Shown here: piece after piece, positions 1,324 to 50,868 of the stretch
Numbering within the stretch: the first letter of the stretch is position 1
Layout: every line of letters starts with the position of its first letter
Source: a virus
Length of the DNA stretch: 64,000 bases
Strand: one strand, 5' to 3'
IMG/VR virus record: IMGVR_UViG_3300048033_001096
Location: 105,232-169,231 of that record
The notes under the pieces: model-generated
Told to the model about the DNA's origin: nothing
The model's input: the letters and a program-made list of their open reading frames with translations, nothing else
The model's database searches: none
Program-made: the position numbers and the translations under genes

Positions 1324-2502
1324 ATGTCAGAACTATTAGAAAGTCGCTGGCAGGACACTAAAACTGCACTTGTAGAAGGTCTTAAAGGCAACAAGAAAGC
1401 TGTTATGGAAGCGACACTAGAAAATACTCGCAGGTATTTAAGTGAAACTGCAACAGCTGGTGCAACTTCTGCAGGTAACGTAGCTACACTTAACCGTGTT
1501 ATCCTACCAGTTATCAGACGTGTAATGCCAACAGTGATCGCAAACGAGTTGGTTGGTGTTCAGCCAATGACAGGCCCAGTGGGTCAAATTCACACACTAA
1601 GAGTACGTTATAGTGACGCATTCGACAGCACAAACGGTACAGACGTAGCTGCTGGCGAAGAAGCACTATCACCATTCAAAATTGCTGAAGGTTATTCAGG
1701 GGACGCTGCTACTGATCGTGCATCAGCTACAGCATCGCTTGAAGGACAAGCAGGCAATAGAATGTCAATCCAGATCTTGAAACAGACTGTAGAAGCTAAA
1801 ACACGCAAACTAAGCGCACGTTGGACCTTCGAAGCTGCTCAAGATGCACAATCGCAGCATGGTATTGACGTAGAAGCAGAAATCATGGCAGCACTTGCTC
1901 AAGAGATTACTGCTGAAATCGACCAAGAAGTTCTTGGTTCATTAGCTTCACTAGCAGGTAATGCTACTGAAACATACGATCAAGCAGCCGTATCAGGTAC
2001 TGCTACTTTCGTTGGTGATGAGCATGCTGCACTAGCAGTACAAATCAACCGCGTAAGTAACTTGATTGCACAGCGTACACGTAGAGGCGCAGGTAACTGG
2101 GCAGTGGTATCACCATTTGCACTAACTATCCTACAGTCAGCAACTACATCAGCGTTCGCTCGTACAACAGAAGGTACGTTTGAAGCACCAACTAACACTA
2201 AAATGGTTGGTACACTAAACAACGCAATGAAAGTATATGTTAACACATATGCAAACGATGCGTCACCAATTCTTATTGGTTACAAAGGTTCAAGTGAATC
2301 AGATGCAGCGGCATTCTACTGCCCATACATCCCACTAATGAGCTCAGGCGTTGTACTAGATCCAAGCACATTCGAGCCAACAGTTTCGTTCATGACACGT
2401 TATGGATATGTTGAGCTAACGAATACTGCTTCGTCTCTAGGTAACGCAGCTGATTACCTAGGTAAAGTTGCTATTACTAACGGTAACGTTAGCTTTAGCT
2501 AA
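1324..2502 (+). CDS. gp23: Major capsid protein (gp23-like)
   Basis: Motifs VIRRVMPTVIANELVGVQPMTGPVGQI, KTRKLSARWTFEAAQD, FYCPYIPL and FMTRYG; possible protease site YLSE/T. Confidence 0.97.
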   Translation: MSELLESRWQDTKTALVEGLKGNKKAVMEATLENTRRYLSETATAGATSAGNVATLNRVILPVIRRVMPTVIANELVGVQPMTGPVGQIHTLRVRYSDAFDSTNGTDVAAGEEALSPFKIAEGYSGDAATDRASATASLEGQAGNRMSIQILKQTVEAKTRKLSARWTFEAAQDAQSQHGIDVEAEIMAALAQEITAEIDQEVLGSLASLAGNATETYDQAAVSGTATFVGDEHAALAVQINRVSNLIAQRTRRGAGNWAVVSPFALTILQSATTSAFARTTEGTFEAPTNTKMVGTLNNAMKVYVNTYANDASPILIGYKGSSESDAAAFYCPYIPLMSSGVVLDPSTFEPTVSFMTRYGYVELTNTASSLGNAADYLGKVAITNGNVSFS

Positions 2503-2523: not shown

Positions 2524-2552
2524 AAAAAAGGCGGCTTATGTCGCCTTTTTTT
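2524..2552 (+). terminator. Intrinsic terminator after the capsid gene
   Basis: AAAAAAGGCGGC-TTAT-GTCGCCTTTTTTT hairpin with U-tract. Confidence 0.85.
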
Positions 2553-2574: not shown

Positions 2575-2602
2575 TTGACTTTTATTGTAGTGATGCTATA
2601 TT
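2575..2602 (+). promoter_or_regulatory. sigma70-type (early) promoter
   Basis: TTGACT-N16-TATATT with extended TG; same GGTTGAC...GATGCTATA layout as the promoter at 50256. Confidence 0.7.
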
Positions 2603-2606
2603 AATA

Positions 2607-2813
2607 ATATAACAAGACGTTGTTATATGGGTTGGCGCTAATAATTTCCGCTCTAGAGGAGATAAGCGCACTTGGTTAGGGGTAGTGCCCGGCGTAGAGT
2701 TTGGAGACAAGCAGTACGCACACTGCGATACTAAGCAGAACTGAGGTTCTAGGCGATAGATGAAACGGTATCTGGACGCTTAGTTGGAGGTAAACCCAAG
2801 TCCTTCACCCACC
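2607..2813 (+). ncRNA. Putative structured non-coding RNA, family unknown
   Basis: About 50% GC island with no long ORF, between a promoter and a terminator. Shows many nested helices, a GAGA tetraloop and a long-range pseudoknot (see findings). Confidence 0.6.
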
Positions 2814-2821
2814 TTTATTAT

Positions 2822-2853
2822 AAAGCCCGATGCTTAACTGTGTCGGGCTTTTT
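2822..2853 (+). terminator. Intrinsic terminator of the putative ncRNA
   Basis: AAAGCCCGA...TCGGGCTTTTT. Confidence 0.8.
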
Positions 2854-2861
2854 CTTTATTT

Positions 2862-2960
2862 GATAAATACTATTGTCAGATAGTGTGCCGCAAGGCGGAC
2901 TTATGCTGTACCCACAGCGTAGCTCATAGAACGGGCATAGGACTACTTTTTATAGGAGAA
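2862..2960 (+). promoter_or_regulatory. Late promoter (GATAAATA) plus structured 5' leader
   Basis: GATAAATA at 2862-2869; hairpins GCC-GCAA-GGC and TTATGCTGT-ACCC-ACAGCGTAG; SD AGGAG. Confidence 0.65.
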
Positions 2961-2965
2961 AACAA

Positions 2966-3421
2966 ATGGGAAGACCACTCAATAAAAGATATTTCGGAAC
3001 GCCAACAGCCGGCGGCAACGAAATTAAAGTACAGTTTTGGAACGGAACTGCATCAGTAAACGGCTGGATTGTAAAGCAACTTGGAAGTAAAAAGTTTCGT
3101 TGCACAGACGGCACAGAAGTAGTAGATTGCTACCTAAGTACAAAAGCATCAGCTGACTTAGACGGTTCGCATGCTACAGTACCTAGTTTAGCTGAAATGT
3201 CTATTACAGTTAAAGACGACGGAGGCACTGCACAGCAAGTAACTAAAATTTCAGGACGCAAAGTAACACTTGAAGACGGTACAGTGATCCAGTGGAACTT
3301 CAGTGATGCTACAGATGATGGCGCAGTTGAAATGGAAGAAGCAGGCGATGATGCAGTTATGGATAACGACGATCTTGCACCAGATGCAGATGACTTCGAG
3401 TCAGACGATCCAACGGATTAA
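2966..3421 (+). CDS. Virion structural protein (possible head decoration), acidic C-tail
   Basis: Late promoter and SD; first protein gene after the capsid gene; MGRPLNKRYFG...WIVKQLGSKKF. Confidence 0.55.
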   Translation: MGRPLNKRYFGTPTAGGNEIKVQFWNGTASVNGWIVKQLGSKKFRCTDGTEVVDCYLSTKASADLDGSHATVPSLAEMSITVKDDGGTAQQVTKISGRKVTLEDGTVIQWNFSDATDDGAVEMEEAGDDAVMDNDDLAPDADDFESDDPTD

Positions 3422-3474: not shown

Positions 3475-4761
3475 ATGTCAAAGATAGTAAGAACTACTGG
3501 TACAGATTATCGTATAATAACAGGTCAAGGTGGAGAAATAATACTCGACACTACTAATGGTTCTGACGATTTAAGCGGAAAAGTTATTGTTCGTGGCGAT
3601 TTACAAGTAAAAGGTGGAACGTCTACTATTGAATCTGTTGTTACTACTATTAATGATAATATAATAGTTTTAAGCGCAGGTAATGACCAACCTGGACTTC
3701 CACCAACGTTAGATAGACCTAGAAGTTCGGGTATTGAAATTGAAAGAGGATCTTTAGCAAATTCTCGTTGGGTATACGATGACGGAATATCTTGGGATTT
3801 AGGCGGACTTACTGGACTCGGTGCTTGGATAGGAACACAAGGCGATATTAACGCAGAACAAATTATTCCAATAAAAACTACAGGAATTATATCCGACGGA
3901 ACATTATATGTTGATACAAATGACGGAGTTATAAGTGTTGCTGGCACAAATAATTATGAATTAAAAATTTGGCGTTATGCAAACGGAGTAATTACTCCTG
4001 ATCCTGTAACAAACGAAATTATTCAAGACGATGACAATATTCCAAATACTAAAGCGGTTACAGATTTATTAGATTATAGATTATCTACTATTAATATTGA
4101 TACTATTAGAGAAGATAATTCGTCAGTAGAAGTTACTGATAAAAATAATATTATTAGTTCTATTTTAGAAGTTGGTACTAGAACATTGCTTAGTACACAA
4201 AACAGTCACGGTTATGCTATTAATGACACTGTTGTTATAACTGGTGTACAAAGTAGTCCAAATGATGCAATCATACAAGGACTTTTAGGCAGTTGGACTG
4301 TTACTGATGTTCCTTCTGCTACTTCATTTGAAATTGATGCTAATTCAATCGGTGCAAACATAAACAACTATGTATTAAATTCAGGAAGAACTGTATCAAC
4401 TGAATCAGAAATAAAAGTAACTGTTGAAAGTACTGAAATTGCAAGTTTCTTTAATAATAGAATAAATTTAGCTGATATTGAAATTAGAGGAACTGAAATA
4501 TTTACAGCGTCGAGTAACGACGATTTAATATTAAATGCAAATGGTGCCGGATCTGTTAAAGTTAAAGATACATTAGAGATAACAAAAACTCCAGGCGATG
4601 ACGATATTTTAATAAATCCAAATGCACCTTTAGATGGAATTAAGATTTATTCAAAAACACAAGGAACTGGTAAAACTGGTTTGTACTTCGTTAATGAAGA
4701 TAACTATCAAGACGAAATAATAAGTAAAAGTAGAGCATTGCTGTATAGCATGTTATTTTAA
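3475..4761 (+). CDS. Virion structural/fibre protein
   Basis: beta-rich, with V.GDL.V.G, I.DNII.L and DLILNANGAG motifs shared with the downstream giants; hydrophobic C-terminus. Confidence 0.6.
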   Translation: MSKIVRTTGTDYRIITGQGGEIILDTTNGSDDLSGKVIVRGDLQVKGGTSTIESVVTTINDNIIVLSAGNDQPGLPPTLDRPRSSGIEIERGSLANSRWVYDDGISWDLGGLTGLGAWIGTQGDINAEQIIPIKTTGIISDGTLYVDTNDGVISVAGTNNYELKIWRYANGVITPDPVTNEIIQDDDNIPNTKAVTDLLDYRLSTINIDTIREDNSSVEVTDKNNIISSILEVGTRTLLSTQNSHGYAINDTVVITGVQSSPNDAIIQGLLGSWTVTDVPSATSFEIDANSIGANINNYVLNSGRTVSTESEIKVTVESTEIASFFNNRINLADIEIRGTEIFTASSNDDLILNANGAGSVKVKDTLEITKTPGDDDILINPNAPLDGIKIYSKTQGTGKTGLYFVNEDNYQDEIISKSRALLYSMLF

Positions 4762-10963: not shown

Positions 10964-13900
10964 ATGGCTGTTGGTCGCATATCCGGTCCGCTCTTAAAGT
11001 CCAATCTCATTCGTAATGGGATTGATCTAGCTTTTGAGACGGATCTACTATATCTAGATGTTAATAATCAGCACATCGGCATCAAGAATGCAACACCTCA
11101 ATACGAGTTAGATGTCCTTGGAACCACTAAAACTACAGATTTAATTGTTACTAATAGAGCAGACTTAGCAGATATTACTGTTGAAGGTAATACTATTAGT
11201 ACTACTCAACCTTATCTTAACCTTGCAACACTTGATACCGTAGTTGCACTTAATAAAATTAGAATTGACAGCATTGATATTGAAGGCAATGCTATCACAA
11301 CAAACGATTCAAACGCAAACCTAGAATTTCGTCCAAATGGCACTGGCAGTGTAGATATACACAGTGATTTAAATGTTGACGGAAATATTTACGCAAGTGG
11401 TAATATTACAGCAGACGGAAATATTACACTAGGTGATGCAGATACAGACAATGTTATCTTTAATGCAGATGTTGCATCAAACATTATTCCAGATATTGAC
11501 GATAGATATACATTAGGTAGTGACCCAGACGCTGGTGGAAAACAATGGAATGATGTATGGGTTAACAACCTACGTGCATCTAGTCTTATTGTTAGTGAAG
11601 AATTAGATGTTGGTGATATTGATTTTACACTAGTACACGGTAACACATACTATGTTGCAGTAAACGGTGACGATGCAAACGTCGGAGATCACTTCTTTGA
11701 TCCATTTGCAAGTGTAAAGCATGCACTAAGCGTAGCAGTTGTAGGCGACACTATTCTTATTAGTCCAGGTGTTTATACAGAAGAATTTCCATTAACAATT
11801 CCAGCAGGTGTTACAGTTAAAGGCGAAGGAATTCGTTCTGTAACAATAGAACCAACCTTAGCTACAAATACAAACAATGCATTTTTGCTTAATGGCGAAA
11901 CAACAGTTGAAGAATTAACAGTTAAAGGATTTTATAGTCCAGGATACGCATTTAGTTATGCACCAGGTTACACAGCAACAAGTCGCTCACCGTATATTAG
12001 AAACATTACAGTAATTACAGAAGGTAGCACAACAACAGCAGAAGATCCAAGAGGATTTAATGCAGGCGATGCAGGTAAAGGTGTGTTTTTAGATGGCGCA
12101 GTAGCAACAAGCACATCAGTTAACACAGCATTACTATTCCACTCAGTAACATTTATTACTCCAGGTGTTGATGCAGTAACTCTTACAAATGGTGCTAGAG
12201 TTGAGTGGCTAAACAGCTTTACATACTTTGCTAATCGTAGTATGTATGCATATGACAGTACACAAGGGCGTAGAGGCGCTGGTAAAACTAAGTTAACACT
12301 AAGTGGTATTACAGGAACCTTTACTCCAGGCAACACACTTACAATTACTTCAGCAGATGCATCAACTGTATTAGTAGGAACAATTGATAGTGTTGACGGT
12401 AATGATGTTTACGTTAGTAGCTATTTAGATTTTGACGGTTTTGATTTAACACCACAGAGTATTACAGATGGCACAGCAACAGCAACTACAATTGATAGTT
12501 TTGATTTAAGAGAGTTTGGTGCTGAAGTTAGACTTATTGCAAGTGCAAGTGTCTATGGTAACTTTGGGCTTGTAGGCCAAGGCCCGGGTGTTATTATGTA
12601 TGCCATTGGACACAACTTGGCATACATTGGTAACGGAAAAGAAGTTACAAACGATCCAAATACAGTTGTACAGGCAAACGAAATTGTAGAAACAGAAAGT
12701 GCAAAAATACGTTATAACTCAGTTGATCACAAAGGTGATTTTAGAGTAGGCGATTTGTTCTATGTTAATCAAGAAACAGGAAGTGTAACATTTGCTGTAA
12801 GTGATTTTGAAATTAACACTGAAAACGGTGTAACATTTACTACCGGCAGTGATACTACATTTGTAGATGGTACGAAAGTTGAAACTGGTGATTGGCGCAT
12901 TAGCGGAAACACTATTGAGACACTAACACAAGATGCTAACTTTGCAGGCGGAAGTGGAATTATTAATCTTAATTCGGATGTAAATGTAACTGGTAGTTTA
13001 GACGTAACCGGAAATGTTACAATTGGTGGTAATATTACAATCGGCGACGAAGCAACTGATACTATACAGATTATAGCAGGAATTGATTCAGACATTATTC
13101 CAAAAACTGCAAGTACTTATAGCTTAGGTACTGCAACAAAAACTTGGGCTAATTTGTTTGTTAACGAAATTAATGCAGACGATATTACTATTCGTGATAA
13201 TTTTATCGAAACAACATTATCAAACTCAGATTTAGAACTACGTGCTAACGGAACTGGTAATATTTTAATTCCAAGAAACGATGTTGTAATTAATAACGAC
13301 CTTGATGTTAATGGAACAGCAACACTTGCAAATACAAATATTACAGGAACACTTACACTCCTTGGAGATCTTAATCAAACAGGCGATTTTACTGTAACAG
13401 GTGATGTTACGGTATCACAGGATTTAGATGTTACTGGATCTGCGCAATTCGAAGAACTACTAGTTGACGATAACTTTATAACAACTACAACAAGTAATAC
13501 TGATCTTGAATTACGTGCTAATGGAACTGGTAATATTTTAATTCCAAACAATGATGTACAAATTACAAATGACTTAACTGTTGATAAAGATATTACTTCT
13601 AATAATTTAACAACTTCTGGCTTAGTTACTGCTAACAGTTTTACAACTGGCAATATTGTTATTAATGACAATTTTATAGAAACTACAGAATCAAATAGTA
13701 ATTTAGATTTACGTGCTAATGGTACAGGTAATATATATGTGCCGAACAACAATGTAGTAATTGACAATGACCTAACTGTAGACGGATCAACAAGTTTACA
13801 AGATGTTGATATCCAAGGTACAATTACACAAACTGGTAATACAACACAAACTGGTAATATTAATTTAACTGGTAACTTTGGAATTACTGGCAATATTACT

Positions 13901-50255: not shown

Positions 50256-50283
50256 TTGACAAGCTAAACTAAGATGCTATAAT
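50256..50283 (+). promoter_or_regulatory. sigma70-type (early) promoter
   Basis: TTGACA-N16-TATAAT with extended TG. Confidence 0.8.
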
Positions 50284-50307: not shown

Positions 50308-50868
50308 ATGTTACCTAAATTGTTAGTTGTAGGACACGGCCGTCACGGCAAAGATACTGTATGCGAGATGTTAGAAGCATACGGATATAAATTCCAATCT
50401 AGTTCTAAGTTTTGTTCTGAGCTGTTTATATTCGACGAGCTAAAAGACAAGTATGGTTATGCAGACGAAGAAGCATGTTATGCAGATCGACATAATCATC
50501 GTACACTATGGTACAACATGATTCACGATTATTGTAAAGATGACCTAGCACGCCTCGGACGTAACTTATTTGCAGAACACAATATCTATTGCGGATTACG
50601 TAATAAACGTGAATACTTTGCTATGAAAAATGAGCAAATTTTTGATTATGCTATTTGGGTGGATCGTACAGATCATTTGCCTAAAGAAGATCCTGACTCG
50701 ATGAGCATCGAACAATGGATGTGTGATTATACTATTGACAACAATGGCGATTTAGTTCGTCTTGAAAAGAACGTAGCAATCCTTATGCGTACTATCTTTA
50801 GAAATCAGGGACTAAGTCTCCCTGCTTCCACTTCACCCCTGTTTTTTGAAGAATCCTTTGACAGTTAG
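50308..50868 (+). CDS. Deoxynucleoside monophosphate kinase (T4 gp1-like)
   Basis: P-loop VVGHGRHGKDTV, R...E, DYTIDNNG. Confidence 0.75.
   Translation: MLPKLLVVGHGRHGKDTVCEMLEAYGYKFQSSSKFCSELFIFDELKDKYGYADEEACYADRHNHRTLWYNMIHDYCKDDLARLGRNLFAEHNIYCGLRNKREYFAMKNEQIFDYAIWVDRTDHLPKEDPDSMSIEQWMCDYTIDNNGDLVRLEKNVAILMRTIFRNQGLSLPASTSPLFFEESFDS

Follow-up and report, generated by a model that had tools for sequence, protein, structure and literature searches.

The locus studied here raises the question of what is made from a GC-rich stretch behind the major capsid gene of an uncultured giant T4-like phage, and whether its product serves the neighboring gene or acts in its own right. The window, that is, the whole 64,000-nt stretch of DNA that was analyzed, comes from IMG/VR record IMGVR_UViG_3300048033_001096, which is 169 kb long at an estimated completeness of 46%, figures that suggest a giant phage as the source. 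On the 3' side of the capsid gene there follow, in this order, a terminator, a sigma70-type promoter, the GC-rich stretch, and a second terminator (Table 1). A first-pass annotation, made from the letters of the DNA, had read this arrangement as a stand-alone structured non-coding RNA that could not be matched to tRNA, tmRNA, RNase P, or SRP, and had proposed a new phage RNA family. The first half of that reading stands, as the RNA folds beyond shuffled controls, its helices covary, and the small ORF inside it is not conserved. The GC excess on which it drew is also real, with 91 of 180 nt (50.6%) being G or C over positions 2631-2810 compared to a window mean of 36.0% (sd 4.9), a level that just 0.05% of 180-nt windows reach. 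The second half does not stand, for reasons given next.

Table 1. Features around the GC-rich stretch, in window coordinates, and the two classical cyanophage manA RNAs, in the coordinates of their own genomes
Feature	Position	Strand	Basis and details
Major capsid protein ORF	1324-2502	+	Pfam Gp23 PF07068, E 5.8e-99; phrog_138
Intrinsic terminator of the major capsid gene	2524..2551	+	Terminator scan
sigma70-type promoter, extended -10	2575..2602	+	TTGACT 2575-2580, 16-nt spacer, TG 2594-2595, TATATT 2597-2602
manA RNA, nine helices	2610..2816 (5' hairpin from 2607)	+	cmscan, covariation in relatives, MFE
manA loops	L5 GUAGUG 2682-2687; L6 GAGA (GNRA); L7 AUACUA 2728-2733; L8 2762-2769; L9 2791-2801	+	
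Intrinsic terminator of the manA unit	2822..2857	+	Hairpin 2822-2851, 11-12 bp stem, then U-run
T4-type late promoter of the next gene, GATAAATAC	2862..2870	+	Conserved in relatives with and without manA
freshwater-2 RNA RF02980	2884..2968	+	cmscan 68.6 bits vs cut-off 49.9, full length; ends on ATG 2966
ORF of 151 aa, downstream neighbor with freshwater-2 leader	2966..3421	+	Without Pfam or PHROG match
Classical manA, Prochlorococcus phage P-SSM2	142837-143034		Rfam model
Classical manA, Prochlorococcus phage P-SSM4	164829-165014		Rfam model

A cmscan search against Rfam 15 identified window positions 2610-2816 (+) as a manA RNA (RF01745), with 85.7 bits against a gathering cut-off of 55.2 and an E value of 1.8e-22, and the match spans the whole model (positions 1-192 of 192). 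Because this is a full-length match to RF01745, the claim of a new family fails. The assignment also holds in the opposite direction: a model built from the window's own clade (R2) scores the classical manA RNAs of the Prochlorococcus phages P-SSM4 and P-SSM2 with 76.7 and 68.3 bits, at the same positions as Rfam's model; Syn9, S-RSM4, and S-SM1 yielded no manA match. We therefore regard membership in the manA family as virtually certain, and it is well supported that the stretch is a real structured RNA gene and a new copy of an already known family. manA was described by Weinberg et al. in 2010 as a probable cis-regulatory element and riboswitch candidate in 5' UTRs, from marine metagenomes, T4-like cyanophages, and two gamma-proteobacteria (PMC2864571), and Rfam places it in the class Cis-reg.

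To put this copy into a comparative perspective, we turned to its relatives. IMG/VR holds at least 599 capsid-protein relatives, the best 80 loci of which were used. Searched with the Rfam model, 16 of 50 records had manA 3' of the capsid gene in the same orientation, the majority of these matches lying below the cut-off. The Rfam structure was mapped onto the window RNA to yield a first model, whose matches yielded the second model, R2; the latter found 26 manA copies among the best 80 capsid loci and, after a pattern scan of viral contigs, the collection came to 64 matches, representing 48 distinct sequences, 41 of them full length. About 80 loci were fetched by the 14-mer GATAGTGCAAGGAA, many without a manA match, and these may be chance matches. 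The relatives that carry manA are uncultured giant phages with a Gp23-type capsid. Their closest cultured counterparts, judged by the capsid protein (67-72% aa), are the jumbo phages Sinorhizobium phage Phosso, Vibrio phage 2.275.O, Pseudomonas phage PA5oct, and Erwinia phage pEa_SNUABM_19, all four of which have ~100-150 nt and no more behind the capsid gene and lack manA genome-wide in a covariance-model search. The cultured phage records likewise gave zero blastn matches to the manA unit, so that neither blastn of these records nor the nearest capsid relatives revealed a cultured host-phage system with a manA cassette.

The fold of the window RNA can be read from two sides. Its minimum free energy (MFE) is -71.7 kcal/mol (z of -3.37 relative to shuffles), and the unaided MFE fold has the same nine-helix architecture as the manA consensus. 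Among 25 distinct relatives, the consensus pairs are formed in 91.7% of cells against 37-45% after shifting the partners by 1-3 columns, both-sided changes occur in 48 of the 54 pairs, and the observed values were reached in 0 of 500 shuffles; the alignments behind these pair counts were fitted to the model's structure and are thus biased in its favor, and the margin is large. The nine helices drawn by the first-pass annotation were right in part. Five of them match both the Rfam consensus and the MFE fold, namely, the 5' hairpin (2607-2628) with its GACG loop, the closing stem TGGGT/ACCCA, GCGCT/AGCGC, GCGTA/TACGC with the inner GTTTG-GAGA-CAAGC, and the 3' hairpin GGAGG/CCTTC. The helices GTAGTG/CACTGC, ACTAAGC/GCTTAGT, and AGAAC/GTTCT do not, and the long-range pseudoknot ACTTGG/CCAAGT finds no covariation support in the relatives either; taken together, these four candidates are paired in 68.8% of cells compared to 67.0% in shuffles, again among 25 distinct relatives and with no covariation, and were rejected. 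The supported fold contains instead a four-way junction closed by UUGGUU/AACUGA (2672-2677/2739-2744), together with GGG/CCC, CUGC/GCAG, CUAGGC/GCUUAG, which is the outer stem of the penultimate arm, and AGAU/AUCU, with GUAGUG forming the loop of a 3-bp hairpin.

Several loops of this fold are complementary to each other. In the window, L5 (G-UAGU-G) is complementary to L7 (ACUA), with UAGU(G) facing (U)ACUA, and the relatives have either UAGU/ACUA or UGGU with ACCA/ACCG. At the central pair, the 41 distinct sequences show A-U in 24 cases, G-C in 9, G-U in 3, and a mismatch in 5. The complementary runs of L8 and L9 are more varied (AGGAU/AUCCU, CUGAU/AUCAG, AAUGAU/AUCAUU, GAGA/UCUC, CGAGA/UCUCG, and CAGA/UCUG); the best run averages 4.51 within sequences compared to 3.70 ± 0.14 with permuted partners, a mean reached in 0 of 2,000 permutations, and the window RNA's own L8-L9 complementarity is limited to 3 bp (GGU/ACC). 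L6 is a GNRA loop in every relative (GAGA, GAAA, GUGA, or GCGA). The complementary loops correspond to the element marked "pseudoknot?" by Weinberg et al. in 2010 and to L5-L7 of a recent cryo-EM preprint (10.64898/2026.07.01.735769), and they are present here. This preprint, which is not peer-reviewed, describes three in vitro assemblies of manA RNAs obtained at high RNA and Mg concentrations (pentamers, decamers, and a 60-subunit cage), held together either by L5-L7' and L8-L9' kissing loops or by L3-L8' plus an L6-P6' GNRA contact. Our helices are numbered from 5' to 3', which makes the GNRA hairpin P6, and we inferred the mapping onto the preprint's helix numbers from helix order and the GNRA loop. 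With this mapping, the covarying L5-L7 and L8-L9 pairs would be the kissing loops of the reported cages. In what we consider its most likely mode of action, an abundant manA RNA would bind copies of itself via L5-L7, L8-L9, and the GNRA loop L6. We put self-assembly of manA in infected cells at somewhat below even odds. A fuller picture, in which manA in giant T4-like phages would be an early, host-polymerase-made, and highly abundant RNA whose kissing-loop pentamers and cage-like shells have a role in infection, appears unlikely; if true, the capsid-side position and the covarying contact loops would provide the first comparative evidence of natural selection for RNA cages.

Covariation is blind to whether loop contacts form within or between molecules, and it is thus equally compatible with an RNA that works as a monomer, its loop pairs being intramolecular, and that has its effect in trans through a partner of host or phage origin, for instance as a protein decoy or sponge, without homo-oligomers in vivo. 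Such contacts are geometrically plausible, since the arms that carry L5 and L7 are neighbors at the same junction and the L8 hairpin lies next to that of L9, and the cages have been observed in vitro only. However, the preprint finds the same contacts to be intermolecular in several manA RNAs (10.64898/2026.07.01.735769), and a partner for such a monomer is not known. We consider a purely monomeric manA possible but doubtful, and self-association remains part of the reading that we prefer.

Regardless of how the RNA molecules meet, the arrangement of the locus bears on whether manA is a gene or part of one. The promoter and terminator that the first-pass annotation had assigned to the unit were recovered as predicted sites (Table 1), and both recur among the relatives. 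All 41 distinct full-length relatives have a promoter of the form TTGAC(T/A), 16-18 nt, TAnnnT, ending ~11 nt before the motif and extended by TGn in 34 of the 41. An intrinsic terminator follows manA in 32 of 40 relatives, starting 6 to ~20 nt past the motif (6 nt in the window), and its stem sequence differs among them. In two of the exceptions, L052 and L110, a tRNA-Gly(UCC) gene lies 7 nt 3' of manA; the remaining ones have further conserved, ORF-less, and apparently structured modules, followed by a terminator.

What takes the terminator's place deserves a separate description. The tRNA-Gly(UCC) genes occupy positions 4499-4573 in L052 and 4366-4439 in L110, a layout that suggests a transcript shared with manA and processed at the tRNA. 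At least three kinds of structured-looking, ORF-less modules are found in the 60-260 nt directly past manA in L157, L099, L138, L121, L040, L145, and L135, with a hairpin module of ~100 nt common to L157 and L099 and another module common to L138, L121, and L099; none of these post-manA modules matches an Rfam family. L099 also harbors, on the same viral contig as manA, a permuted two-piece tmRNA at 12888-13275 (RF04321, 118 bits; alpha_tmRNA, 98 bits). On the other side of the unit, several relatives have glutamine riboswitch aptamers (RF01739, 43-58 bits) in the space that separates manA from the capsid gene, namely, L027 (4233-4280), L018, L050, L015, L060, and L082; the L027 aptamer precedes an ORF of 28 codons, the stop of which overlaps the -35 box of manA. 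The window itself contains another sigma70 promoter that is close to consensus and has an extended -10 (TTGACA ... TGCTATAAT), at 50256-50283, ~25 nt 5' of the ORF at 50308-50868.

The gene downstream of the unit is served independently. The T4 late-promoter consensus is TATAAATA, and GATAAATAC fits both this consensus and a phage of the Gp23 type; in the window, all five of its copies are on the + strand, intergenic, and 20-125 nt before an ORF start. Behind the manA terminator, freshwater-2 starts ~14 nt past GATAAATAC and, as it reaches from this late promoter to the ATG of the 151-aa ORF, it makes up the complete 5' leader of a late gene. freshwater-2 is thus a separate neighbor with its own late promoter and not part of the manA unit; it is present irrespective of manA and immediately precedes a phage ORF without a recognizable domain. 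A full-text literature search for freshwater-2 returned unrelated papers only, and the motif is absent from the main text of Weinberg 2017. A link between the manA loops and those of freshwater-2 was considered and dropped after inspection by eye, as the freshwater-2 loop is a constant ACCC and L8 and L9 are variable.

The comparison of capsid loci points in the same direction. Where at least 1 kb of downstream sequence is available, manA is present in 18 of 46 loci and absent in 28, and most of the latter keep the late promoter and the freshwater-2 leader, in several cases directly behind the capsid terminator. Since manA comes and goes while its neighbors are kept, the promoter-manA-terminator cassette behaves as a discrete insertion or deletion. 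One of the loci without manA, L030, has two consecutive terminator hairpins behind the capsid gene (4158-4290), which looks like the remnant of a lost cassette.

These observations have to be weighed against the role under which manA is catalogued. If the RNA were a riboswitch or another cis-regulatory leader, its expression platform would be the hairpin at 2822-2851, and the 151-aa gene would be controlled by read-through that depends on a ligand. This would agree with the Cis-reg label in Rfam and with the original proposal of a probable riboswitch in 5' UTRs (PMC2864571), riboswitches are usually built as an aptamer with a terminator behind it, the 151-aa gene lies on the same strand, and in P-SSM2 the start of purL is located 16 nt past manA. 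The terminator, however, starts 6-19 nt past the fold and shares no bases with it, whereas a riboswitch termination platform shares or competes for aptamer bases. The window's terminator hairpin (-17.9 kcal/mol) forms in the full-length MFE structure, as it does in every full-length MFE structure of the relatives where a terminator was delimited. Adding its 5' arm to manA gains -1.5 kcal/mol compared to -2.5 ± 2.1 for shuffled arms, with similar values in 18 relatives, so that the arm pairs with manA no better than shuffles, and the stems vary freely among relatives. The energies of fold and terminator are nearly additive, and this, together with the lack of competition between arm and fold, leaves no sign of an expression platform. 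The position in a 5' UTR, on which the Cis-reg label is based, is a contextual rather than a structural feature and is not found here: the downstream gene has its own late promoter, promoter and leader of this gene persist in most relatives without manA, and what comes after manA in some relatives is a tRNA or other non-coding modules rather than a gene. A leader function in the window is therefore improbable.

The cyanophage copies differ in this respect. In both P-SSM2 and P-SSM4, manA is immediately preceded by a consensus TTGACA-17-TATAAT promoter and a clean terminator is missing; P-SSM2 has its purL start at most 16 nt farther on. A promoter is thus common to the window clade and both cyanophage copies, whereas an own terminator is a feature of the window clade, and the free-standing layout does not extend to the whole family; some read-through role for manA may exist.

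Two further readings can be dealt with briefly; the ribozyme and anti-defence roles also named in the first-pass annotation are speculative. A tRNA-like mimic, suggested by the 3' hairpin stacked on the closing stem and the ACC that follows, rests on a loose resemblance and is very improbable: ARAGORN found no tRNA or tmRNA, no tRNA, tmRNA, or RNase P family appeared in Rfam even at an E value of 10, in line with what had been stated from the letters, and the ACC past the closing stem is not kept in relatives, most of which have CUAUC and then ACAU or AUAU. As for a small Arg-rich protein from the 20-codon ORF (TTG, 2672-2734), which does exist and has a GAGGAG upstream, its chances are negligible, as even the two nearest relatives differ in its frame, start, and length, the frame being shifted there by a 1-nt deletion, the ORFs of the others share neither start, frame, length, nor peptide, and the GAGGAG is the 3' strand of a covarying helix, conservation thus following the helices rather than the codons.

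Taken together, an own promoter and terminator, a terminator that does not compete with the fold, and a next gene that is independently served lead us to conclude that manA is here a free-standing gene and not a gene-leader switch. In the mechanism that we propose, the host-type sigma70 promoter with its extended -10 would start transcription at ~2609, the foot of the 5' hairpin, the transcript would fold into the nine-helix manA structure (2607-2816), and the strong intrinsic terminator would end it at ~2853-2857, giving a non-coding RNA with a predicted length of ~245 nt. Flanked by the terminator of the Gp23-type capsid gene on one side and by the next gene's T4-type late promoter on the other, the unit would be an optional cassette, and manA would act as an RNA product, not as a leader for its neighbor. 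That manA is a free-standing RNA gene rather than a cis-regulator, with transcript ends and abundance being predictions, is in our judgment highly probable; for the complete reading, an independent manA RNA gene in an uncultured giant phage that acts as an RNA product and likely associates with itself, we estimate a probability of about 0.75.

Since 2010, manA has stood as an orphan "riboswitch candidate"; with the preprint of 2026, it is the first natural RNA for which in vitro formation of an icosahedral cage has been reported. The present work indicates that a large group of uncultured giant phages carries manA as a gene of its own, with a strong host-type promoter, its own terminator, and sometimes a tRNA beside it, and that the presence or absence of manA leaves the neighboring gene unaffected. 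About 40 relatives and the window copy thus argue against the catalogued cis-regulatory role, so that our analysis adds two things to what was known of the family, namely, evidence against cis-regulation in the window clade and the finding that loops serving as contacts in the reported cages covary.

How far the window RNA resembles the RNAs of the cage preprint can be stated loop by loop. The contacts named in the preprint, L5-L7' and L8-L9', correspond to loops that are complementary and covary in the window clade, and L6 is a GNRA loop. In contrast, the RNAs that were imaged are other sequences, and the window RNA has an L8-L9 complementarity of just 3 bp.

With the classical manA RNAs of P-SSM2 and P-SSM4, the window copy shares the nine-helix fold, matched along the entire model, the signature loops (L1 GACG, L5 GURGUR, L6 GNRA, and L7 with ACY), and a near-consensus sigma70 promoter directly 5'. 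It differs from them in several regards: (i) it scores 85.7 bits compared to ~182-184 bits for the cyanophage copies, with most of the window clade falling under the Rfam cut-off; (ii) its P6 is longer, and an intrinsic terminator belongs to the unit; and (iii) it follows the capsid gene of a giant phage that is not cyanophage-like and has a GC content of 36%, with no gene start abutting it.

A further parallel is offered by the species 1 and 2 RNAs from the tRNA region of T4, which we take to be stable, ORF-less RNAs of a T4-type phage made by the host polymerase, as proposed here for manA. We know of no relation in sequence or structure between these RNAs and manA; in the window's clade, manA does adjoin a tRNA gene in two relatives, L052 and L110.
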